The notes under the pieces: model-generated
The model's input: the letters and a program-made list of their open reading frames with translations, nothing else
What the model was told of the DNA's origin: nothing
Databases searched by the model: none
Shown here: positions 4,026 through 15,528 of the stretch, in pieces
Position numbering within the stretch: position 1 is the first letter of the stretch
Layout of the letters: the number at the start of each line of letters is the position of its first letter
Position numbers and translations under genes: made by a program
IMG/VR virus record: IMGVR_UViG_3300030095_001135
Coordinates: 1 to 39,031 of that record
Source of the DNA: a virus
Lineage: Duplodnaviria > Caudoviricetes
Reading direction: 5' to 3' (one strand)
Length of the DNA: 39,031 bases

Positions 4026-4082
4026 AGAGGTTGAGCACTAACACTACCAGTAGTGCTTCCCGTATCCTTTACTCTATTCACT

Positions 4083-4550
4083 ATGACTTTTGACACTGAA
4101 GAACAAATCAACCGACGTCGGATACCTTCTGACGCTTGGCTAACTAATGCTTGGATGCTTCAACTTGCTGGTCAAGATCCTAAAGACTCTTATATGACTT
4201 TGTTTGTTTCAACTGATTTGAACAAGGTCCAGGAGCTTTACCACAAATGGCCAGAAATGGCAGGCTGTAGGCTTAGGATTATTAACCACAATAAGAGAGT
4301 ATATAAGAACTTTATGAAGTGGTTTAAATGGGATCATTGCAATTCATTTGTAGACAGTAGAACCACTTATCATTTTGAACAGAATTATCAAAATGTTTAT
4401 GAAACTGTCATGAATAAGAAAGTAAATACCATTGATGCTTCATTCGTTACGATATCTAATGAAGCCAAGAGAACATTCTTTAATAAATTTATTGAAAGAA
4501 TGGCTGATGCTGTTAAACCTAAATTAAAACTAATTAAGGGAGGCTTATAA
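4083..4550 (+). CDS. Early hypothetical protein
   Basis: ORF track gives 4053..4550; ATG 4083 (MTFDTEE) is preferred over the GTG inside the leader hairpin. Confidence 0.7.
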   Translation: MTFDTEEQINRRRIPSDAWLTNAWMLQLAGQDPKDSYMTLFVSTDLNKVQELYHKWPEMAGCRLRIINHNKRVYKNFMKWFKWDHCNSFVDSRTTYHFEQNYQNVYETVMNKKVNTIDASFVTISNEAKRTFFNKFIERMADAVKPKLKLIKGGL

Positions 4551-4551
4551 A

Positions 4552-4665
4552 ATGCACAAGATGAATCCTTACTATTTTATTTACAACTCTGATGGTATTT
4601 GCGTAGGCTTTAATCCTTATGAAGAGCCATTCATTGAAATAGAAGAGCCTGAAGAAGATGACTAG
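4552..4665 (+). CDS. 37-aa early protein with acidic C-terminus
   Basis: MHKMNPYYFIYNSDGICVGFNPYEEPFIEIEEPEEDD; GGGAGG Shine-Dalgarno just upstream. Confidence 0.6.
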   Translation: MHKMNPYYFIYNSDGICVGFNPYEEPFIEIEEPEEDD

Positions 4666-4732
4666 TTTTATTCTCTTATTCTGTTTAGTTATTCTTTTAT
4701 ATATCTTCTTAAAGAATATAAAAGCATACTAA
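4658..4732 (+). CDS. 24-aa membrane peptide
   Basis: MTSFILLFCLVILLYIFLKNIKAY; overlaps the previous stop; one TM helix followed by basic residues. Confidence 0.55.
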   Translation: MTSFILLFCLVILLYIFLKNIKAY

Positions 4733-4748
4733 CTAACCAGTAGTAACA

Positions 4749-4789
4749 AGCTTAGAACTAACTTAATCAATGAGTTAGTTCTAGCTTTT
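4749..4789 (+). terminator. Long hairpin (terminator or RNase III-type site)
   Basis: TAGAACTAACTTA-ATCAA-TGAGTTAGTTCTA, a 13-bp stem with one G:U, followed by GCTTTT. Confidence 0.55.
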
Positions 4790-4818
4790 AATGTCAACTT
4801 TTATTTAATCCTTTACCA

Positions 4819-5445
4819 ATGTTTTTAATTAATCATGATAGTCCTGGAGTGTCTAACATTCTTGGGACTTATGCACTAGCTACAACTAGTGAATGCAATC
4901 AGGGCTCAAGCTGGTATAAATTAGCCTATACAATAGCTTTGGATATTGCAGTTAAATATACTGTATCTGTTGAGAATGTAGCCTTTGTTATTGCTGCTCT
5001 ATCGCCTTCTAATAGGTGGGAAAGAAACTTAATAGATGCTGAGAACTTTATAAGATTATATGCAGTTGGTGAGCCTGAAGACTGTCTTAGTTTAAATGTC
5101 TGTACTTATCCAAACAATAAGAAGAAAGCTTTAAACATATTACAAGCTAGAACAAATAAGGATAAGTTAACCATTCTAAAAGGTCCTAAGATTACAGAAT
5201 TTTATAAATGTATTATTGGAGATAAGAAAGAATGCTGTATAGATGGTCATGCTTATTCTATCTGGTTAGGTGAAAGAATAAAGTTAAAAGATGTACCTTC
5301 TATTAGTAAGAAACTAAGAGGAATAATAAAAGATGATTATCAACAGGCTACACATATAATAAATACAGATTTAGAACTTAAGTATTTAGTAAGTGATATT
5401 CAAGCCATTACTTGGGTAACTCATAGGAGAATGTATGAGATATAA
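4819..5445 (+). CDS. Conserved phage early protein, possibly HhH-glycosylase-like fold
   Basis: 208 aa; WY...IAALSP...W..N, GPK..F, IDGHA and QAITWV motifs of a widespread phage family. Confidence 0.75.
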   Translation: MFLINHDSPGVSNILGTYALATTSECNQGSSWYKLAYTIALDIAVKYTVSVENVAFVIAALSPSNRWERNLIDAENFIRLYAVGEPEDCLSLNVCTYPNNKKKALNILQARTNKDKLTILKGPKITEFYKCIIGDKKECCIDGHAYSIWLGERIKLKDVPSISKKLRGIIKDDYQQATHIINTDLELKYLVSDIQAITWVTHRRMYEI

Positions 5446-5524
5446 TTACAGAAGATTGTATTACTTATCATATATAATCTTTCCTCTATTGTTATTTATT
5501 ATATGTGAAATACTTACAGATTAA
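5435..5524 (+). CDS. 29-aa membrane peptide
   Basis: MRYNYRRLYYLSYIIFPLLLFIICEILTD; AGGAGA SD upstream; ends just before a terminator. Confidence 0.5.
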   Translation: MRYNYRRLYYLSYIIFPLLLFIICEILTD

Positions 5525-5531
5525 TAACACT

Positions 5532-5558
5532 TAGGGCTGCTAACTGCGGCCCTATTTT
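5532..5558 (+). terminator. Rho-independent terminator
   Basis: TAGGGCTGC-TAACT-GCGGCCCTA-TTTT. Confidence 0.75.
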
Positions 5559-5570
5559 ATATATAGTTAT

Positions 5571-5590
5571 TGAGAATGAATCTCATTATC
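5571..5590. promoter_or_regulatory. Fur-box-like palindrome, copy 2
   Basis: TGAGAAT-G-AATCTCA-TTATC; 5572-5590 matches the E. coli Fur consensus GATAATGATAATCATTATC at 15/19. Confidence 0.6.
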
Positions 5591-5593
5591 AGG

Positions 5594-5617
5594 TGTGACA
5601 CTTACCAAACTGTCCAC
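5594..5617. promoter_or_regulatory. GACA-N10-TGTC palindrome, copy 2
   Basis: TGTGACACTTACCAAACTGTCCAC, sandwiched between two Fur-like boxes. Confidence 0.6.
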
Positions 5618-5629
5618 TCTTATTGTTAT

Positions 5630-5644
5630 TGAGAATCATTCTCA
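5630..5644. promoter_or_regulatory. Fur-box-like palindrome, copy 3
   Basis: Perfect 7-1-7 TGAGAAT-C-ATTCTCA. Confidence 0.6.
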
Positions 5645-5743
5645 TCTGTCTCAAGATTTCCAAAGCTTTCGGAAATCGTGATAGTAGTCCAAGCGCCCAA
5701 CAGATTTAGTATGCTTTAAACTATAAGAGACATTAAAGGTCAA

Positions 5744-6172
5744 ATGACACAGCCTACCTTAACAACAAGAGACAGATTCTACGCACCACTCAGGAAGATG
5801 GCTAGTGACTACCTACCACTGCTCCTAGGTCGTATGAGAATACTAGAGGATAGGGCAGAGATAGCTATGGAGTTCCTGGACCATGAGGGGGATGAAGAAC
5901 ACGAAGTGCTTTGGGGTCTTGAGGGTGCTGAGAGGGTAGCGGCAGTAGCAGAAGCTCAGAGAGACTTACATAAATCAGTACTGGAAGCAGGAACATGCCA
6001 ACAATTAGTCCACGCATTTGGAGATCTATTACAAGAAGATTACAGAAAGATCCGTGATAATGGATGTTATTATGTAGGACCAGACGGTAAACGACATTCA
6101 TTATACGATGTCCAGCAGCAACCTCCAGACAGTGATAAGAGAGGCGGTAACGAAGGAGTCAGAAGTGGATAG
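5744..6172 (+). CDS. Early hypothetical protein
   Basis: 142-aa helical-looking ORF with AAAGGT upstream. Confidence 0.7.
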   Translation: MTQPTLTTRDRFYAPLRKMASDYLPLLLGRMRILEDRAEIAMEFLDHEGDEEHEVLWGLEGAERVAAVAEAQRDLHKSVLEAGTCQQLVHAFGDLLQEDYRKIRDNGCYYVGPDGKRHSLYDVQQQPPDSDKRGGNEGVRSG

Positions 6173-6326
6173 CTTACTTAGTGAACTTAGACAGATAGAC
6201 CGCATAGCAAAGAAGAATAACTGGACAAAAGAGGAAGAAGAAAATGCCAAATCTAGGCTCATTAACGACTGGAAAGATAGTGAGCATGAACGTCATCATC
6301 ATATGCATTTAAAAAAGCCCTCATAA
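6108..6326 (+). CDS. Early hypothetical protein
   Basis: 72-aa charged ORF with a His-rich end; stops inside the terminator. Confidence 0.6.
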   Translation: MSSSNLQTVIREAVTKESEVDSLLSELRQIDRIAKKNNWTKEEEENAKSRLINDWKDSEHERHHHMHLKKPS

Positions 6327-6340
6327 AGAGAGCTTTTTGT
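6311..6340. terminator. Bidirectional terminator between convergent units
   Basis: AAAAAAGCCCTC-ATAAA-GAGAGCTTTTT, with A/T tracts on both sides; the stem is cleaner (G:U) on the minus strand. Confidence 0.75.
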
Positions 6341-6349
6341 TTGGGTTAG

Positions 6350-6394
6350 TTAGCGTCTGTAGTATGCGACGCCACGGTAAGTTAGTTTTACCAT
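6350..6394 (-). CDS. 14-aa DUF4278-like downstream peptide
   Basis: MVKLTYRGVAYYRR; the LTYRGV.Y motif lies directly downstream of the riboswitch. Confidence 0.8.
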   Translation of the reverse strand: MVKLTYRGVAYYRR

Positions 6395-6407
6395 GAGTAG
6401 GTTCCTG

Positions 6408-6466
6408 TTACCACAGCCCCGTTTCATGCTGTGACTACCTGCGCCTCAGTTAAGAGGTAAACGGAC
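6408..6466 (-). ncRNA. Downstream-peptide RNA (glutamine-II riboswitch)
   Basis: Minus-strand RNA CCGUUUA-CCUC-UUAACU-GAGG-CGCAG-GUAGU-CACAGC-AUG-AAACGG-G-GCUGUG. It gives P1 CCGUUU/AAACGG, P2 CCUC/GAGG, conserved CGCA and pseudoknot CACAGC/GCUGUG, followed by the YRG peptide. Confidence 0.85.
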
Positions 6467-6475
6467 GTAGGAATA

Positions 6476-6643
6476 CTACCAAATGTTAGGGATCAATTGA
6501 CCAGTGACTATGTAGCTTCCTAAAGCGGCCACTACACCAATCATAGCAAGTCTGCCATTTAATAGTTCAGCATCTTCATTAAGAGAATTAGCTTCTATGG
6601 CTCTTACTTGTGGTTCCTTTTGGATAACTTGAGTGTCATTCAT
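6476..6643 (-). CDS. hli: High-light inducible protein
   Basis: Hand-translated 55 aa: MNDTQVIQKEPQVRAIEANSLNEDAELLNGRLAMIGVVAALGSYIVTGQLIPNIW; AExxNGRxAMIG and TGQxIPxxW motifs. Confidence 0.95.
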   Translation of the reverse strand: MNDTQVIQKEPQVRAIEANSLNEDAELLNGRLAMIGVVAALGSYIVTGQLIPNIW

Positions 6644-6645
6644 GG

Positions 6646-7005
6646 TTAGAACTTGTACTTGGCTCCAATTTTGGTTCCATATGCAGTGTCAGCAGTATCA
6701 TCAGTTACGAATGAAACTTCTCCGTATACATCTAACTTCTCAGTAGCTGCGATTTTAACACCACTTTTACCTGAGAAATCAGTTGTACCATCTACTCCAT
6801 CAGCAGCTTGAAGTGCTGGACCACCTTGAATGTAGTATCCAAGTTGACCTGCTTTACCTTCATATCCGATATGTAGATCAGTTCTTGTAGACGTATAATC
6901 ACTACCTGTATACTTTGCTTTTGACTCAGCATTTACATAGACACCAGCAAGGGCAGGAGCTGTACCTATACCTAGCAGGGCAGCTAGAGCGATTGCGAAC
7001 TTCAT
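6646..7005 (-). CDS. Small outer-membrane beta-barrel-like protein (picocyanobacterial type)
   Basis: Start MKFAIALAALL at 7005 is preferred to 7029. It has a signal peptide ending ALA, amphipathic beta strands and a C-terminal GAKYKF beta-signal. Confidence 0.8.
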   Translation of the reverse strand: MKFAIALAALLGIGTAPALAGVYVNAESKAKYTGSDYTSTRTDLHIGYEGKAGQLGYYIQGGPALQAADGVDGTTDFSGKSGVKIAATEKLDVYGEVSFVTDDTADTAYGTKIGAKYKF

Positions 7006-7029
7006 AAATAGTAATAAAAGTATAGGCAT

Positions 7030-7059
7030 AGTATAAGTGATAGTACTTAGCTAGTACTA
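7030..7059 (-). promoter_or_regulatory. Putative promoter of the minus-strand cassette with palindromic operator
   Basis: -10 TATACT (7035-7030) with a perfect TAGTACT-N5-AGTACTA (7041-7059) just upstream. Confidence 0.45.
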
Positions 7060-7136
7060 CGGTTGTTACTTAAAGAACAAATCAACAAACTTAGTTTTAA
7101 GTTTAATTAAGAGTAATCATAATAAGTAGTTTAAAT

Positions 7137-7159
7137 ATGACACATTACTAAGTGTCACA
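7137..7159. promoter_or_regulatory. GACA-N10-TGTC palindrome, copy 3
   Basis: TGACAC-ATTACTAA-GTGTCA (7138-7157) upstream of the SSB gene. Confidence 0.6.
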
Positions 7160-7223
7160 TTAAGGGTTGTCTAGAGGACGTTCTTGTTTGTACGTTCTGT
7201 ATGTCCTTTACAAATCAATTCAA

Positions 7224-7790
7224 ATGATTCCAGTTTGCGGTACTTTTACAGGTTTTATACCTCATCATGTAAAACCACCAACATATCAAAATGCTCCTAC
7301 TGACTTTAGGTTAAAGATTAAGGTGGACTCTGATGTAGACAGCTTATTAGAAGCTTTAACTGAAGCTTATGAGAAGGCATGTGACTGGTATAGAAACCAA
7401 GGAGGTGGTAATGCTTTCTTTGATGCTCCATTTACTACTGAGGAAGATGGTTCATTAATTGTTAAAGTATGCGCCAAGCCAGATTATAAGGAGTTTCCAT
7501 TCCCTGTGGTAGACAGTGATTTAGTACCTATCTCAGAAGATATTTATCTTAGAGAAGGGACTAGCGTTATATGTCAAGTAAAGCCTAAGTTCATTTCTCC
7601 TAAAGCATCTAAGGGTGGTATGAGGTTAGTACCACAAGGTATGCAGGTTGTTGAAGCTGTAACTACAGAGGGTAGAGACGATGGTGTTTTCGATGTAAGC
7701 ACTGCGTTTAAGAAGGGTAAAGGTTTTAAGCAAAGTAAACCTGCTGTTAAAGAACCTGCTACTGTAGCTGACGAAGACGAAGACTTCTAA
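7224..7790 (+). CDS. Single-stranded DNA-binding protein (T7 gp2.5-like)
   Basis: Acidic tail ending in Phe (ADEDEDF); position before endonuclease I; ATG 7224 preferred. Confidence 0.85.
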   Translation: MIPVCGTFTGFIPHHVKPPTYQNAPTDFRLKIKVDSDVDSLLEALTEAYEKACDWYRNQGGGNAFFDAPFTTEEDGSLIVKVCAKPDYKEFPFPVVDSDLVPISEDIYLREGTSVICQVKPKFISPKASKGGMRLVPQGMQVVEAVTTEGRDDGVFDVSTAFKKGKGFKQSKPAVKEPATVADEDEDF

Positions 7791-7795
7791 CGCTT

Positions 7796-8194
7796 ATGAC
7801 CTCCCGAAGATTCCACAAGTACGGTAGACGTACAAGAGATGGTTTTCGTTCGGGGTTTGAGTCAGAGGTAGCTAAGAGTCTCACTGCTGATGGGATTGCT
7901 TACGAATACGAACAACACAAGTATGACGTAGTAATCCCAAGACGCTACACACCAGATATAGTGTTAGCTAACGGTATAGTCGTAGAGATTAAGGGCTACT
8001 TTGACGCAGACGACAGAAGACTTATCAAAGTCTTTAAGGAGCAACATCCAGATATAGATCTAAGGATGTGTTTCCAGAATCCACATCAACGATTGTCTAA
8101 GACAGCAAAAATGTCGTATGCAACGTGGTGTGATAAGTACAACATTCCTTGGTGCAAAGGACCACACTTGCCTAGACGCTGGACTGCGCTATAG
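7796..8194 (+). CDS. Endonuclease I (T7 gp3-like resolvase)
   Basis: FRSGFE, YTPDI, VEIKG, DRR, and Y..WC.K motifs. Confidence 0.95.
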   Translation: MTSRRFHKYGRRTRDGFRSGFESEVAKSLTADGIAYEYEQHKYDVVIPRRYTPDIVLANGIVVEIKGYFDADDRRLIKVFKEQHPDIDLRMCFQNPHQRLSKTAKMSYATWCDKYNIPWCKGPHLPRRWTAL

Positions 8195-8195
8195 T
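8167..8195 (+). promoter_or_regulatory. Putative sigma70-type promoter
   Basis: CTTGCCT-N11-TGCGC-TATAGT; predicted TSS about 8201-8202. Confidence 0.6.
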
Positions 8196-8201
8196 TCAGT
8201 T

Positions 8202-8255
8202 GGTAAAGGATACCTGAAAGCCTCCAAGGATTGATCCCCATCTTGGAGGTTTTTT
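8202..8255 (+). ncRNA. Candidate small RNA or attenuated primase leader
   Basis: Bounded by the promoter and a terminator-like hairpin with U6; its 5' GGUAAAGGAUAC is complementary to five start-proximal sites. Confidence 0.55.
8220..8255 (+). terminator. Terminator-like hairpin sequestering the primase SD
   Basis: GCCTCCAAG (8220-8228) / CTTGGAGGT (8242-8250) followed by a T tract; GGAGG 8245-8249 is 7 nt before ATG 8257. Confidence 0.7.
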
Positions 8256-8256
8256 A

Positions 8257-9870
8257 ATGTCAGTAATTCATTCTCCATGTCCCAAGTGTGGATCAAAGAA
8301 TAACTTAGCTATTTGGGAAGATGGTAGTCAGAAGTGTTTCACTCCTGGCTGTAACTACCAAGTTTATTCCAACAGTTCTAATCCTTTACCTCAAATGAAA
8401 TCAACTACCCAAGAAATTGAACCAATTATTGGTGAAGCAGTAGCAATAAAAGGAAGGAAGATACCGCAAGACAGTGCCAAGTTTTTTGACTATTTAAAAG
8501 GTACTCATGGTGGTGAGTCTGCTTACTTCTGGCCTATTTATGACAATCAGAGACGCTTAACTGGTTACAAGATAAGGAAGAAGAATAAACAATTCATCAT
8601 GCATGGATCAAATGATGATAGTACTTTCTTAGGCCAAGAGAAGTGGGGTAATGGTGGTAAGTTGTTGGTGATATTTGAGGGTGAGTATGACTGTCTTTCA
8701 TACCATGCTGTAAGGAAGTCATGGGCTTGTGTCTCATTGCCTAATGGAGCTGAGTCTGGGCATAAGATAATTAAAGCTCAGTTACCTTGGTTACTTAAAT
8801 GGGAGGAGGTCATACTGTGTTATGACAATGATGAGGCTGGAAAGAAAGCAGCTCAAAGAGATATACAATTACTCCCACCACGTAAGGGGAAGATAGGTTC
8901 TATTGAGGGTTATAAGGATGCTAATGAAGCTTTAATGGCTGATAACTTTCAAGCTATTACAAGAATGGTTTGGGATGCTAAAGAATATGAGCCTGACGGT
9001 ATAATCAACGCCTCTAAGTTACTAGAGGAAGTACTAGAAGATCCAAACGTAGACAGTGCTGAGTATCCATATGAGTTCCTTAATGACAAACTCCAGGGGC
9101 TACGAAAATCAGAACTCCTGACAGTCACTGCAGGAACAGGGGTTGGCAAGTCAACTTTTGTAAATGAAATTGCCTATGACTTATTAGTGCGACAGAATCA
9201 AACTATTGGGGTTATCTCATTAGAAGAGAATCTACGCAGAACTGCAAGAAGGTTTATAGGAATCAATCTCAATCATCCAATTCACATTAATAAAGGAGAC
9301 ATTACCGATGAACAAATCGAACAAGCATTCAAGGAAACCTTGGGTACGGGGAGGCTTTGGCTCTACGATCATTTTGGCTCCCTTGACTGTGATGTACTTC
9401 TTAATAGGGTCAGGTACTGTATTGTCAGCTTGGGTTGTGATTGGGTTATTTTCGATCATCTATCGATCTTGGTATCAGGTTCAGATGAAAGTAATGAAGT
9501 CAAGGCAATCGATAGGACGATGACAAAACTCAGATCTCTCGTAGAAGAGACTGGAGCTGGGCTAATATTGGTCAGTCACCTAAGAAGGCCACAAGGAAAT
9601 AAAGGTTATGAAGATGGGCAGCAAACATCTCTCTCTAGTCTTAGGGGTAGTTCAAGTATCGCTTGCCTTAGCGACATTGTCATTGGCTTGGAAAGGGATC
9701 AACAAGACACAGACTCTGATGGAACAACAGTGCGAGTACTCAAAAATAGATTTTCAGGATGGGTAGGCCAAGCAGGTAAGGTAAAATATATGGATTCAGG
9801 TAGAATGATGGCGCTTGAAGATAACACCAACTTTGTAAAAGCTAATGGTTTTACTGAATCCGACTTTTGA
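8257..9870 (+). CDS. DNA primase-helicase (T7 gp4-like)
   Basis: CPKC...CFTPGC Zn finger, TOPRIM EGEYD and YDND, Walker A AGTGVGKS, DHL, VSHL, LRGS, KNR. Confidence 0.97.
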   Translation: MSVIHSPCPKCGSKNNLAIWEDGSQKCFTPGCNYQVYSNSSNPLPQMKSTTQEIEPIIGEAVAIKGRKIPQDSAKFFDYLKGTHGGESAYFWPIYDNQRRLTGYKIRKKNKQFIMHGSNDDSTFLGQEKWGNGGKLLVIFEGEYDCLSYHAVRKSWACVSLPNGAESGHKIIKAQLPWLLKWEEVILCYDNDEAGKKAAQRDIQLLPPRKGKIGSIEGYKDANEALMADNFQAITRMVWDAKEYEPDGIINASKLLEEVLEDPNVDSAEYPYEFLNDKLQGLRKSELLTVTAGTGVGKSTFVNEIAYDLLVRQNQTIGVISLEENLRRTARRFIGINLNHPIHINKGDITDEQIEQAFKETLGTGRLWLYDHFGSLDCDVLLNRVRYCIVSLGCDWVIFDHLSILVSGSDESNEVKAIDRTMTKLRSLVEETGAGLILVSHLRRPQGNKGYEDGQQTSLSSLRGSSSIACLSDIVIGLERDQQDTDSDGTTVRVLKNRFSGWVGQAGKVKYMDSGRMMALEDNTNFVKANGFTESDF

Positions 9871-10087
9871 TGTATATATAACTCGTATTAATACTACAAA
9901 GTACTCCGTTTTCGCTGCTTCTGAGAAAGCAAAACGTCCTTTACAAAGTTACTTTAAAGCAAATGATTTCGTCCACTCAGTTGGAAAGGACACACTTAAA
10001 GCCCTTACCAACTATTGCACCAGAAACAAACTCACTACCTACTTCAACGATACTGTTCGACATAGAAACGAACGGTTTGAAGATTGA
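9845..10087 (+). CDS. Hypothetical protein overlapping helicase end and polymerase start
   Basis: 80-aa ORF filling the gp4-gp5 gap; overlaps the polymerase ORF by 125 nt. Confidence 0.45.
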   Translation: MVLLNPTFDVYITRINTTKYSVFAASEKAKRPLQSYFKANDFVHSVGKDTLKALTNYCTRNKLTTYFNDTVRHRNERFED

Positions 10088-11840
10088 AGATATTACTAAG
10101 ATACATTGCTGTGCAATTAGTGATAGTAGTCAGATCAAGCTATACAAAAAGGATTGGCTAAAGATACTAGAAGAGGCTGAAATATTAATAGGACACAACA
10201 TAATTCAATATGACATCCCAGCGATCAAACATATTTACCCAGAATTTAAACCAAAGGGAAAAGTTATAGATACTTTGATATTGTCACGAATGTTTTATCC
10301 AGACATTCTTGATATCGATCATAAAAGGAAGTGGAAAGATATGCCAATTCAAATGTATGGCAGACATAAGTTAGAGGCTTATGGATACAGACTTGGGTTA
10401 CATAAGGAACACGCAGATATGACAGATTTTTCAGAGTTAACTGAAGAATTAGCAGAGAGATGCAAGTCAGATGTCAAGGTGACTGCTATGCTCTGGCGTA
10501 GGCTGCAGCCAAAGGTTAACAAGTACCCTTCTGCTGTTGACCTTGAGATGAGGTTTGCAACTCTTATCTCAAAACAGGAACATTCTGGTTTTGCGTTTGA
10601 TTGCGAAGGGGCAATGAAACTAGAAGCAGAGATTGTTTCACAACTGAAGAGCATTGACGAAAGATTGAGACAACGGTTCCCTTTCGTTGATGGAGGATTA
10701 TTCACTCCTAAGCGAAATGATTCTTCTAGAGGATATGTAGCTAAAGCCACTATGTGTCGTTTGGTTCCTTTGAACCCTAACTCTAGGGATCACATAGCTT
10801 GGGTTTTAAAGAATCATCTGAAGTGGAAAGCAGAAACCTTCACTAATACAGGGAAACCAAAGATTGATGAAGGGGTTCTTAAGAATATTCCTGGAGCGGA
10901 GGATTTTGTGATTTCGCTTACTCTTCAAAAAAGACTCGGACAACTAAGCACTGGTAGCAATGCTTGGTTGAGATTGGTCGGGTCAGACAATCGTATTCAT
11001 GGAAGTGTTATTACGGTTGGTTGTGCTACCCAGAGAGCTAGTCACGTCCACCCCAATATGAGCCAGTGTCCTGCTGTTAGGTCAGTACTGGGATCGGAGT
11101 GCCGAGCTTTGTTTGGACCTAACGTTCTACCTTATCCACCCCTAAAGGGACGTTTATGTAAGAAGAATCCGATGGTAGAAGAGGATTTCCCCAAGCAGGT
11201 TGGCGTTGACTTATCTGGAATCGAAGCAAGGGCATTAAGCTCCTACTTATGGCCATTCGACAATGGGAAGTTTGCTAAGGAGGTACTTGAGGGCGACCTT
11301 CATAAAGCGAACCAACTTGCCGCTGGCTTGGAAACTAGGGATCTTGCAAAGACGTTTTTTTACGGCCTTATTTATGGGGCAGGTTCAGAACGCCTAAGCA
11401 AGATCACTGGCCAAAATGGTAAAAAACTAAAGCAAAGGTATTACAAAAATATGCCGGCTTTAGCGGAGCTTACTAAAAGAGTAACAGCAAAAGCAGGTGA
11501 AGATGGCTTTATTAAAGCTATAGATGGTAGACCTATTAAGATTAGATCACCTCATAGCGCACTAAACTTTTTACTCCAGAGCTGTGGTGCAATTGTAAGC
11601 AAGCTTTGGTACAACATTTGTTATGACGATATAACTAAAGCTGGTATGGTCTATGGAGAAGATTGGACCTTCTTAGCTCACATTCATGATGAGATTCAAT
11701 TCTCAGTAAGAGGCTCTCTTTCTCAACAACTAGCAGAAATAGCTACAGAGGCTTCAAAAAAAGCTGGTAAAGAGCTTAAGATAAGAATACCCATAGAAAG
11801 TGAGTATAAAATTGGACTCAATTGGGCAGAATGTCACTAA
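9963..11840 (+). CDS. DNA polymerase family A (T7 gp5-like)
   Basis: Exo I FDIETNG, GHNIIQYD; motif A DLSGIEAR; motif B AKTFFYGLIYG (Tyr at the 762-equivalent position, as in T7); motif C HDE. Confidence 0.97.
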   Translation: MISSTQLERTHLKPLPTIAPETNSLPTSTILFDIETNGLKIEDITKIHCCAISDSSQIKLYKKDWLKILEEAEILIGHNIIQYDIPAIKHIYPEFKPKGKVIDTLILSRMFYPDILDIDHKRKWKDMPIQMYGRHKLEAYGYRLGLHKEHADMTDFSELTEELAERCKSDVKVTAMLWRRLQPKVNKYPSAVDLEMRFATLISKQEHSGFAFDCEGAMKLEAEIVSQLKSIDERLRQRFPFVDGGLFTPKRNDSSRGYVAKATMCRLVPLNPNSRDHIAWVLKNHLKWKAETFTNTGKPKIDEGVLKNIPGAEDFVISLTLQKRLGQLSTGSNAWLRLVGSDNRIHGSVITVGCATQRASHVHPNMSQCPAVRSVLGSECRALFGPNVLPYPPLKGRLCKKNPMVEEDFPKQVGVDLSGIEARALSSYLWPFDNGKFAKEVLEGDLHKANQLAAGLETRDLAKTFFYGLIYGAGSERLSKITGQNGKKLKQRYYKNMPALAELTKRVTAKAGEDGFIKAIDGRPIKIRSPHSALNFLLQSCGAIVSKLWYNICYDDITKAGMVYGEDWTFLAHIHDEIQFSVRGSLSQQLAEIATEASKKAGKELKIRIPIESEYKIGLNWAECH

Positions 11841-12303: not shown

Positions 12304-12498
12304 ATGAAGAACAGACCTGAACCTAATCTCAGTCTTCAAAATTACAAAGAAGATATTTTAATTCGTTGGGATATTCATCTCTATGAATGGTCTTCTTTAG
12401 TGGAAGATTGTAAAGGATATTACGAATATCTAAAACCTAAAGTTAAGGCAGTGATTACCTACTGTAAGGATTCATATAGGAGAGCTTTTGGGTCATGA
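12304..12498 (+). CDS. Hypothetical protein
   Basis: 64-aa ORF with ATGA overlap to the next gene. Confidence 0.6.
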   Translation: MKNRPEPNLSLQNYKEDILIRWDIHLYEWSSLVEDCKGYYEYLKPKVKAVITYCKDSYRRAFGS

Positions 12499-12776
12499 AA
12501 TGCATTCTCTGTAAATCACGTACAACAGTATTAGAGTCACGGTCTTATACCCATGAGGGTCTTGTTACTAGAAGGCGTAGGGAATGTATTAATAAGAAGT
12601 GTAAACATAAGTTCACTACTTATGAGAGTTGTAAGGAAAAACCTCTAAGACAAGGAGAAGCTAAATTAGTTAGTTTTTCTGTACGAGATGTAGATGAAGC
12701 TATGGATGATTTACTAAGTTCTATCCATCAGTGTCAACAAATCAGTAGGAGTATTACTGAAAAATGCACTTACTAA
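12495..12776 (+). CDS. NrdR-like N-terminal Zn-ribbon protein without ATP cone
   Basis: MKCxxC...VLESR...RRRREC....C.HKFTTYE matches the NrdR Zn ribbon; only 93 aa. Confidence 0.8.
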   Translation: MKCILCKSRTTVLESRSYTHEGLVTRRRRECINKKCKHKFTTYESCKEKPLRQGEAKLVSFSVRDVDEAMDDLLSSIHQCQQISRSITEKCTY

Positions 12777-14104: not shown

Positions 14105-15528
14105 AACTCAAGGAACCACTTCTTCAAGATAAATTCACACCTGCTTTAGCTATTACAGGCAGAGTAGATAGCTGGTTAAAAGAGCCTACAAGACGTTATC
14201 CGATGTCCTGTACTGTATTCGTTGTGGAAGACACAATGGACGAGCATGAGGACGGCCTGGAGGGGTCGTGGGAGTTTTGTTCTAAAGCCTTGCGCTATGG
14301 AGCTGGTGTTGCTATCCATTTGAGTAAGTTACGTCCGAAAGGGTCTGAAAATGGGAAGGGACTTACAGCTTCAGGACCATGTAGTTTCATGGAGATCTAT
14401 AGTAAGTTCAACGAAACCCTTCGGAGAGGGGGAGAATTTAAAAATGGTGCGGTTTGCTGTCATATTGACTGGGACCATGCTGATATTCTTGAGTTTATTT
14501 CTTATGATCGTGCTCGAATACCTTGGGTTAAACGTTGCGTCAATGTTGATGAAAATGTAATTAACAAACCAACAGTTTTAAAGGCCATCATGGATGGTGC
14601 TAGTAAAGGAGATATATGGATTGTTAAGAAGCAGTATGACAAAGAAGGTGAAAGGATTTATCACAATGTATGTCAAGAGATTTTAATTAAGTCAAGGGAT
14701 ACCTGCCTCTTGAGTCACATAAATTTGGGTGGAGTTACTTCAATTAGTGAGATACCTAGTGCAATGGCTCATGGTATGGAATTTCTATGCCTTCTTTTCC
14801 AACAAACTGGTGCTGATCAGTCTGGTATTTATAAAAGAAGAGATAACCAAGTAGGTTTAGGGGTATTAGGTTTATCCAATCTATTAGCTATTGAAGGTGT
14901 ATCTTATAAAGCTTTTGTCTCAGCTCTTAGGTTTAGAAACTTACATCCATCATCTGAACCTCCTGCAGGTATAACTATGGCTCATTCAATAGCTGTAGCT
15001 TTAGATGTTGGATATAAAGAAGCAGCTAAAGTAGCTGAAAGATATGGTATGACTAGGGCTTTTACTATAGCTCCTACTGCATCCTGTGCTTATCGTTATA
15101 AAGATAGAGAAGGTTATACAGCTTCGCCCGAAATATCACCTCCCATAAGCAGAGATGTGGACCGTGATAGTAGTACTCTTGGCGTTCAAAGTTATCAATT
15201 TAATCCTAAGTGTGAGATTGCTGAAGAAGTTGGTTGGGATACTTTCTTTGAGTTGAATTGTGAATGGCAAGTCATGATGGATAAAACCAAGAAGGCTCAT
15301 GCTATCTCAATGAATTGGTGGTCAGATATGGTAAAAATGGACAGAAGTTTTATGGATAGATGGTTAAATTCACCGCTAAAAAGTCTATACTATTCTTTAC
15401 AGGTACAACCAGATACTCAAGACAAAACAGATATATATTCCGCACTAGGGGATACAGCTATTGTTGATGAGTATTTGAGTGAAATCCTGAATGCAGATAA
15501 CGCTCCAACTTGTGATTGTGCAGAATGA
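14101..15528 (+). CDS. nrdA: Ribonucleotide reductase alpha, short cyanophage class I type
   Basis: SCTV, NVCQE, TCLL, APTAS, class I SLYY dyad and C-terminal CDC; no ATP cone. Confidence 0.9.
   Translation: MKLKEPLLQDKFTPALAITGRVDSWLKEPTRRYPMSCTVFVVEDTMDEHEDGLEGSWEFCSKALRYGAGVAIHLSKLRPKGSENGKGLTASGPCSFMEIYSKFNETLRRGGEFKNGAVCCHIDWDHADILEFISYDRARIPWVKRCVNVDENVINKPTVLKAIMDGASKGDIWIVKKQYDKEGERIYHNVCQEILIKSRDTCLLSHINLGGVTSISEIPSAMAHGMEFLCLLFQQTGADQSGIYKRRDNQVGLGVLGLSNLLAIEGVSYKAFVSALRFRNLHPSSEPPAGITMAHSIAVALDVGYKEAAKVAERYGMTRAFTIAPTASCAYRYKDREGYTASPEISPPISRDVDRDSSTLGVQSYQFNPKCEIAEEVGWDTFFELNCEWQVMMDKTKKAHAISMNWWSDMVKMDRSFMDRWLNSPLKSLYYSLQVQPDTQDKTDIYSALGDTAIVDEYLSEILNADNAPTCDCAE

Follow-up and report, generated by a model that had tools for sequence, protein, structure and literature searches.

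How a T7-like phage that has lost its RNA polymerase times its genes is the question raised by a short stretch between the endonuclease and primase genes of the virus record IMGVR_UViG_3300030095_001135. We analyzed positions 1-39,031 of this 89%-complete record, here called the window, in which the motif TCCTTTAC is repeated on the + strand near starts of early and replication genes and its complement lies between endonuclease and primase. A first-pass annotation had proposed that this stretch encodes a phage small RNA (sRNA) with these genes as its regulon, and at the level of sequence our analysis supports that proposal through a clade-wide promoter-seed-terminator anatomy, the lack of an RNA polymerase gene and covariation between seed and targets. 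We consider it reasonably probable that positions 8190-8255 comprise a promoter and a ~54-nt sRNA whose seed pairs at starts within the same phage genome (early genes, ssb, the internal primase start and the polymerase) and damps their translation. Taken by parts, functional RNA-RNA pairing is very probable and a trans-acting RNA is likely; a discrete transcript, the sign of the regulation and action in trans are what we infer from the arrangement described below.

The putative element and the gene behind it are laid out as follows.

8168..8195, + strand: sigma70-like promoter, with a −35 TTGCCT at 8168-8173 and a −10 TATAGT at 8190-8195 that overlaps the endonuclease stop codon
8202..8255, + strand: predicted small RNA of ~54 nt, from the predicted +1 at G8202 to the U-tract, placed by the promoter and terminator positions
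8202..8214, + strand: seed region GGUAAAGGAUACC (DNA GGTAAAGGATACC), which by folding forms a weak stem-loop with AAGGA in the loop
8221..8249 (hairpin) and 8250..8255 (T6), + strand: terminator-like hairpin and T-tract, the 3′ arm at 8245-8249 being the Shine-Dalgarno (SD) sequence of the primase ATG at 8257
8257..9870, + strand: primase/helicase (phrog_239), whose full-length start lies right behind the hairpin and whose internal start is a predicted target

The complement of TCCTTTAC occupies 8203-8210, six bases behind TATAGT and ahead of the hairpin and six T residues, just as the first-pass annotation had placed it. The element is intergenic with its own predicted promoter and terminator, as expected of an sRNA; its fold has a z of about −2.6, and the hairpin's 3′ arm doubles as the GGAGG SD of the primase. 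A simple terminator scan with a loop limit of 8 nt did not list the 8221-8255 hairpin. No coding frame is apparent in the element: the window has no ATG from the predicted +1 to the U-tract, and in relatives leader lengths vary by 1-2 nt indels. A covariance model (R1) scores the window element at 66 bits and in related loci matches only the orthologous site. Rfam gave no match at the element and, in the window as a whole, only a Glutamine-II riboswitch and a chance Histone3 hit. The −10/+1 stretch resembles tRNA D-arms, and a DNA pattern built around it retrieved mostly such matches, the element itself making up 17 of the 120 loci. In the element, however, the D-stem fails to close and no tRNA came up in Rfam, so a tRNA or tRNA remnant was rejected. 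The 'terminator' at the endonuclease of LUZ100 is unrelated to the element. The predicted ssb (7167-7175) and sRNA (8168-8176) promoters have a common TTGYCTAGA at −35, the ssb copy of which is not clearly conserved in distant lineages.

Relatives were collected through the primase and endonuclease proteins, one step of which took the best 80 of 184, and through DNA patterns, yielding 194 loci (given L numbers here); 16 were dropped for lack of a full endonuclease end. All 178 loci in which the endonuclease end is complete have the −10 box, the purine-rich leader and the hairpin, 177 by script and L295 by eye. They comprise 130 loci retrieved by protein (130 of 130), 46 retrieved by pattern, the window and P-RSP2, and this redundant set reduces to 47 distinct seeds. 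The −10 box reads TATAGT, TACAGT, TGTAGT or TATGAT in 47/47 seed lineages and is followed after 6 nt by GG in 39/47. Where the endonuclease stop is shifted upstream (L166/168/173/177, L175/179/188/189 and L153/154), a TGnTA(T/C)(G/A)(A/G)T-type box still lies at the same distance from the seed, and such conservation apart from the stop codon is the pattern that a dedicated sigma70 promoter would be expected to leave. Among 56 distinct hairpins, pairs 1-7 are kept in every one, with C-G to G-C and A-U compensations and a mean of −15.1 kcal/mol, and the spacing from GGAGG to the start is 6-9 nt across the variants. The site behind the hairpin is also an insertion hot spot (e.g. L004, L007, L019, L207, L209): in 22/173 loci another gene lies directly behind the hairpin and takes its SD, usually encoding a 196-aa protein, which from a motif we take to resemble a DNA cytosine methyltransferase, and sometimes consisting of a 67-aa open reading frame (ORF). 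An additional 25-nt stem-loop lies between the −10 box and the seed in the L253/L267/L268 lineage.

The viruses bearing the element are a group of marine and aquatic cyanobacterial viruses. Clade R comprises the P-RSP2-like phages, which have a single-ORF DNA polymerase (PMC12695635). The window primase is 71% identical to that of Prochlorococcus phage P-RSP2 and <46% identical to the other 39 among 40 listed records, and the polymerase is one 625-aa ORF; on these grounds (primase identity rather than a nine-gene tree) and by its gene content we assign the window to clade R, as a P-RSP2-like, T7-like cyanophage that has no RNA polymerase. Its gene order is T7-like, running from terminase through the early region, ssb, endonuclease, primase/helicase, polymerase, exonuclease and reductase to the structural genes. 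No window ORF matched an RNA polymerase in PHROGs, and tblastn with the Syn5 and P-SSP7 RNA polymerases and integrases matched 0/194 loci, a set that includes P-RSP2 in full and 39 loci in which both terL and ssb are present, in a database without a positive control. A Pfam RNA_pol search of two records gave no match, but neither did its controls, and the absence of the polymerase, already supposed in the first-pass annotation, rests on the PHROG and tblastn results. The element is absent from five RNA polymerase-encoding cyanopodoviruses (Syn5, P60, S-TIP28, P-SSP7 and P-SCSP1a), and 24 starts in the first four of these have no special complementarity to the seeds (median percentile 0.25-0.95).

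Within the window TCCTTTAC occurs five times on the + strand (4065, 4809, 7204, 8382 and 9937) and six times on the − strand (8203, 12410, 14603, 30414, 30925 and 34540), the five − strand copies other than 8203 all lying within coding DNA. All five + strand copies have the flanks given by the first-pass annotation and an in-frame ATG downstream, and its off-site copies were likewise found, together with one at 12410 that it had not listed. Shuffled sequence contains 1.95 ± 1.27 copies on both strands, and 0/100 shuffles reach 11. Three of the + strand copies are in the leaders of clear gene starts (4083, 4819 and 7224), the others preceding the internal primase Met and the polymerase ATG; with start windows of −30 to −1 covering 2.9% of the + strand (38 gene starts), P(≥3 of 5) = 2.4e-4 and P(≥4 of 5) = 3.6e-6, both values being for a motif picked post hoc, after the sequence had been viewed. 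The predicted target sites and their genes are these.

4062..4073, + strand: target site 1, leader of the first early gene (ATG 4083), 12 bp; orthologous leaders follow the seed class
4083..4550, + strand: first early gene, 155 aa, predicted target
4808..4817, + strand: target site 2, leader of a DUF7178 gene (ATG 4819), 10 bp
7203..7211, + strand: target site 3, at the predicted +1 of the ssb mRNA (−10 TACGTT 7191-7196; ATG 7224)
7224..7790, + strand: gp2.5-like ssDNA-binding protein (phrog_112), predicted target
8381..8390, + strand: target site 4, upstream of the internal primase Met (ATG 8395), with the strongest covariation
9936..9944, + strand: target site 5, upstream of the DNA polymerase ATG 9963 and within an overlapping ORF, 9845-10087
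9963..11840, + strand: DNA polymerase (phrog_17), weak predicted target

Five sense-strand sites in the whole window reach a helix score of ≥21 to the seed and four of them are sites of the first-pass annotation; the fifth, at 15391, does not coincide with a start, and the polymerase site scores slightly below the cut. The full RNA pairs with the five targets at a net −7.9 to −12.5 kcal/mol, against 0 to −5.4 for four control starts. The predicted duplexes of 9-12 bp keep to the range first proposed, although a +1 at G8202 shortens the duplex at 4819 from 12 to 10 bp, and that at ssb, with +1 at 7203, is 9 bp. Complementarity of one short seed to start-proximal sites on several unlinked mRNAs, as seen here, is a further property expected of an sRNA. 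At target site 2, TCCTTTA is kept in all of the loci (5/5) that belong to the window's seed class and include the start of the gene. The first early gene product has no PHROG or Pfam family above cut-off and no usable Atlas hit.

If the sites are addressed by the seed, a change in the seed should be mirrored in the targets, and the relatives provide several such cases. The window has the seed class UAAAGGA, sister lineages have GAAAGGG and the higher-GC group has mostly GAAAGGAC. In the first-early, ssb and internal-primase windows, the base after CCTTT is A in 14/15 distinct sites of the UAAAGGA class and in 3/98 of the GAAAGG classes, a pattern that amounts to one seed change mirrored at three to five targets. 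Both registers are present in lineages with GGUAAAGGAAAGGG or GGUAAGGGAAAGGG, which suggests a possible route between the classes. A two-A seed in L149 goes with GTCCTTCA at ssb, and a four-A seed in L277/303 goes with TCCTTTTC at ssb and TTCCTTTTCC at the early gene. In L252 a GAACGGA seed is accompanied by TTCGTTC at the internal primase start and by TCG, a synonymous change, at the polymerase site, and in L020 the change at the polymerase site alters an amino acid. L214 and L207 have UUGGAAGGG paired with CCTTCCAA or CCTTTCCAATT, L022 has 11-14 bp matches at three early genes, and L247/L152 combine a GUUGUUG seed with a (CAA)n leader on an early gene whose counterpart in L156 has TTTTCCTTTC. 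Several independent seed changes are, in these comparisons, mirrored in the targets.

Covariation was also scored throughout the set, by duplex energy and by an ungapped helix score, with numbers per gene that vary with contig extent. The duplex with the lineage's own seed is in the best 10% of random sense windows in 39/45 cases at the internal primase start, 28/44 at ssb, 21/37 at pol and 7/7 at the first early gene, and eight control starts reach this level in 0-4 of 17-44. Own seeds are favored over foreign ones in a full matrix, which ignores relatedness, with z of −8.3 for the internal primase site, −4.2 for pol, −3.9 for ssb and −3.3 for the gene at 4083. ATG windows of the early region in 21 lineages give a z of 4.5, with terL and antisense controls null. 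For an independent test we took 15 edge-disjoint pairs on a quick IQ-TREE tree: with targets pooled, duplex energy favors the own seed in 12/15 pairs (p = 0.018) and in 8/15 for controls. The internal primase site holds under both scores, with 11 pairs better, 3 worse and 1 tied by duplex energy and 10, 1 and 4 by helix score (p = 0.006, 10 of 11 non-tied). The seed-target covariation for which the first-pass annotation had called is present in the matrix, in independent pairs for the internal primase site, in the early leaders and in the individual case changes. These comparisons point to pairing under selection at the internal primase site and the early leaders, ssb and pol not reaching this separately in the independent pairs.

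The placement of the sites is informative as to mechanism. Of the duplexes of ≥7 bp, to which these position counts apply, 109/111 overlap −20 to +19 and 13 lie wholly 3′ of the AUG. An SD-like word is found at 2/137 target starts (the exo start has an SD in 26/35), and target windows are 60-83% pyrimidine and predicted to be as open as their surroundings or more so (P unpaired 0.55-0.65 vs 0.50-0.52). At ssb a TAnnnT-N6-G lies directly before the leader in 41/46 lineages, and in 40 the untranslated region is 16-27 nt and begins at the site; because the site begins six behind the TAnnnT box (40/46), it is predicted to form the first nucleotides of the leader. An in-frame Met in primase codons 33-61, after the zinc finger, is present in 47/47 lineages, and presumably, by analogy, is comparable to the T7 gp4B start. 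The polymerase ATG is kept in 37/37 lineages, the start having been picked with an ATG-containing pattern.

From these placements the following sequence of events can be proposed. Host sigma70 RNA polymerase would start at G8202 and stop at the hairpin, and the predicted sRNA would accumulate, rising with genome copy number. Its seed would form 8-12 bp duplexes over the pyrimidine-rich, SD-less initiation regions (−20 to +19) and block 30S loading. With host-type promoters on each replicated genome and no phage polymerase to time the genes, the sRNA would be a negative-feedback, dosage-linked brake on early and replication proteins. Read-through past the hairpin would yield the full-length primase mRNA, with its SD from the hairpin's 3′ arm, and pairing of this leader in cis with the internal start may set the ratio of long to short primase-helicase. 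Since the sites lie at variable distances and on both sides of the AUG, occlusion would fit better than a positional activator under the ribosome-footprint rule. Delivery in trans of the hairpin GGAGG as an SD was set aside because it is locked in a −15 kcal/mol stem and the sites are on both sides of the AUG.

A number of results weigh against an sRNA that damps all of these starts. In the full matrix two controls, endo (z −2.9) and the gene at 5744 (z −1.9), also lean cognate, and the own seed is the top-scoring seed in only 5/21 early regions. The pooled independent pairs are not significant by helix score (9 better, 4 worse, 2 tied; p = 0.13), and they lend no separate support to ssb (7/5/3, and 6/5/4 by helix score) or to pol (5/5/1 and 4/2/5). 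Matches are poor in L150, L159, L160 and L153/154 and at ssb of L250 and L252; a shared early gene has no match in 4-5 of 18 leaders, and the A/C switch after CCTTT is a single evolutionary event. The polymerase site is the weakest of the five, and is partly coding-constrained because its 9937 copy sits in the conserved overlapping ORF 9845-10087 (codons R-P-L-Q). The primase SD accounts for part of the hairpin's conservation. The seed stem-loop exposing AAGGA, part of the first-pass proposal, folds in the window as described, but the 5′ stem is kept only in lower-GC lineages and is absent in most higher-GC ones.

Other explanations of the same observations differ in what they do with the pairing. 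The RNA and its duplexes could be as we describe with the opposite sign, shielding mRNA 5′ ends or cleavage sites from RNase E/J or opening initiation regions and so boosting early and replication genes. The ssb site starts at the predicted +1 in 40/46 lineages, where pairing could just as well be protective for the mRNA; shielding by antisense RNA against RNase E is reported in cyanobacteria (PMC10989914), and sRNA action by SD blocking has been questioned there and may be less general (PMC6778093). Against a positive role, the sites are predicted to be open, leaving no inhibitory structure to open, and they lie on either side of the AUG, at variable distance and in one case mid-gene, and we regard it as unlikely. 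It is improbable, in our estimate, that the element is a cis-only primase leader or attenuator without a free sRNA, its seed pairing at long range with the internal start and, on the ssb-endonuclease transcript, with the ssb 5′ end. The best-supported covarying site is indeed the internal primase start, the minimum-energy fold of the read-through transcript pairs the seed with that site in cis (a further point against our interpretation, this being its strongest site), and the hairpin contains the primase SD; however, first-early leaders 3-4 kb upstream track the seed past the terminator-like hairpins at 4752 and 5532 and an opposite-strand cassette, and the arrangement persists in the 22/173 loci with a gene inserted between element and primase.

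The remaining two explanations dispense with RNA pairing between seed and targets. Were the sites DNA operators for a fast-evolving phage regulator, with the 8203 copy an inverted operator at its promoter, the coincidence of both the ssb site and the element with a predicted +1 would be accounted for, and conserved family-less genes such as 5744-6172 could encode the regulator. The orientation is one-sided, however, with the cognate 7-mer on the sense strand in 26/137 target windows and antisense in 0; the sites are not palindromic, different targets use different seed registers, and mismatches have a modest G:U-compatible bias (T-for-C 83/148 vs C-for-T 34/92; controls 30% and 25%, rows not independent), which together leave operators hardly credible. 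It is also very improbable that the matches are a coincidence of ordinary pyrimidine-rich SD-less leaders, with the element consisting of an ssb-endonuclease terminator, a primase SD and a purine-rich spacer, or with the seed addressing host RNAs or the 16S rRNA tail. The pyrimidine content of the target windows, the coding constraint at pol and an SD frequency at chance level in Prochlorococcus (PMC6778093) are what such a coincidence would require, yet the matching is lineage-specific, other SD-less starts (rnrA, rnrB, terL and endo) do not pair, RNA polymerase-encoding cyanopodoviruses of the same host genera are without sites, and the dedicated −10 box is conserved. Paired with a short 16S-tail motif, the seeds have a median of −5.6 kcal/mol, a comparison that is not like-for-like.

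The preferred interpretation, an sRNA acting as a brake on translation, can be extended to one that we hold to be doubtful: the RNA as clade R master repressor, taking as RNA alone the place of the T7 polymerase/lysozyme timing circuit and also that of a CI-type protein, with copy-number-like control, a non-integrated carrier state and seed variants as superinfection immunity groups. These features are suggested because the RNA would rise with genome copies and covers the ssb, helicase, polymerase and first-early starts together. No integrase was found by the tblastn search of the 194 loci. A scan of host genomes for integration found a single clade R contig (L307), P-RSP2-like and element-bearing, binned in a Cyanobium metagenome-assembled genome; as it is 8.7 kb long without host flank it is no evidence of integration, and it is probably mis-binned or an infecting phage.

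Several neighboring features deserve mention. ORF 9845-10087 (+, ~80 aa), which overlaps the primase end and polymerase start, is conserved in all 37 lineages examined, has no Pfam family and is missing from the P-RSP2 annotation. The gene at 5744-6172 (+) encodes a 142-aa protein with no known family in Pfam, PHROGs or Atlas, is present in nearly every clade R locus covering the region, and is a candidate for a clade transcription regulator. An opposite-strand cassette at 6476-7005 (−), with hli and a cyanophage outer-membrane beta-barrel protein (PF24653), is located where RNA polymerase-encoding relatives place their polymerase. A Glutamine-II riboswitch above the Rfam gathering score lies at 6410-6466 (−); a 14-aa ORF, MVKLTYRGVAYYRR, which we take to be DUF4278-like, follows it at 6350-6394 (−), and an L[TV]YRG peptide is found on the minus strand in 18/37 lineages with enough upstream DNA. 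Upstream of the exonuclease, 12495-12776 (+) encodes an NrdR-like zinc-ribbon protein (PF22811, E 3e-11).

The element is conserved and apparently undescribed. In line with the first-pass annotation, neither this RNA nor any regulation in clade R was described in the literature searched, although subscription papers and unsearched supplements may contain a description; the searched supplements of Fremin et al. (PMC10690425) gave no match, and the RNA may be listed unnamed in others. Clade R accounts for ~3-4% of cyanopodovirus reads in ocean viromes (PMC9860041), and because cultured P-RSP2 (host Prochlorococcus MIT9302) carries the element, with the predicted RNA at about 40690-40745 on the minus strand of HQ332139, the key tests are feasible. 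Most described phage sRNAs belong to temperate phages and act on host genes or a single phage operon. In the present case an entire T7-like cyanophage clade appears to control its own early and replication genes with one RNA, a testable solution to the problem of gene timing in a T7-like phage after loss of the RNA polymerase. The 47 seeds with their multi-target compensations would be a rare natural series of seed-target co-evolution, and they point to pyrimidine-rich, SD-less initiation regions as a control point in picocyanobacteria.

Among known systems, the C4 antisense RNA of phages P1 and P7 acts by short pairing, and its immunity specificity shifts with changes in the paired sequences. 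It is, as the present RNA is predicted to be, a phage RNA that represses phage translation (PMC8198154). It serves one operon (icd-ant) of a temperate phage and is made from that operon's own leader, whereas here there are 4-5 unlinked targets including ssb, helicase and polymerase; identity with C4 or C4-2 was rejected, there being no Rfam hit at E ≤ 1 and the context being endonuclease-primase rather than an icd-ant leader. SviR of the Vibrio satellite PLE (bioRxiv 10.1101/2022.04.08.487710) is a conserved, trans-acting, multi-target sRNA of a mobile element that reduces the translation of phage targets and also acts on mRNAs of the element encoding it; the likeness is one of description, and SviR belongs to a satellite-versus-helper conflict whereas the present RNA would be self-control of phage replication genes. 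PreS of lambda, VpdS of VP882, 24B_1 and DicF are further phage or prophage base-pairing RNAs that shape the infection cycle, but come from temperate phages, are mostly Hfq-dependent and mostly have host targets or a single phage target (PMC12197685). The short host sRNAs Yfr1 and Yfr10 display a single-stranded or loop-borne motif to many Prochlorococcus targets (PMC6778093). Their motif is conserved and pyrimidine-rich (it contains UCCU) whereas the present seed is variable and purine-rich, and with no Rfam hit at the element we rejected identity with them.

RNA I of ColE1 and CopA of R1 are constitutive RNAs that limit replication functions by gene dosage, with loop changes setting specificity. 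They are cis-encoded and fully complementary to one target, whereas the present RNA would be trans-encoded and multi-target with 8-14 bp of pairing; a cis-encoded antisense RNA of the OOP, sar, RNA I or CopA kind was rejected, since the element shares its strand with the targets, lies 0.18-4 kb from them and pairs over 9-12 bp. The predicted RNA resembles the trans-encoded, seed-pairing sRNAs of bacteria in its own promoter, short imperfect pairing, several targets elsewhere and intrinsic terminator (PMC12197685), and differs from them in that an apparently lytic T7-like phage would here target its own genes, with seed and targets turning over fast between lineages.

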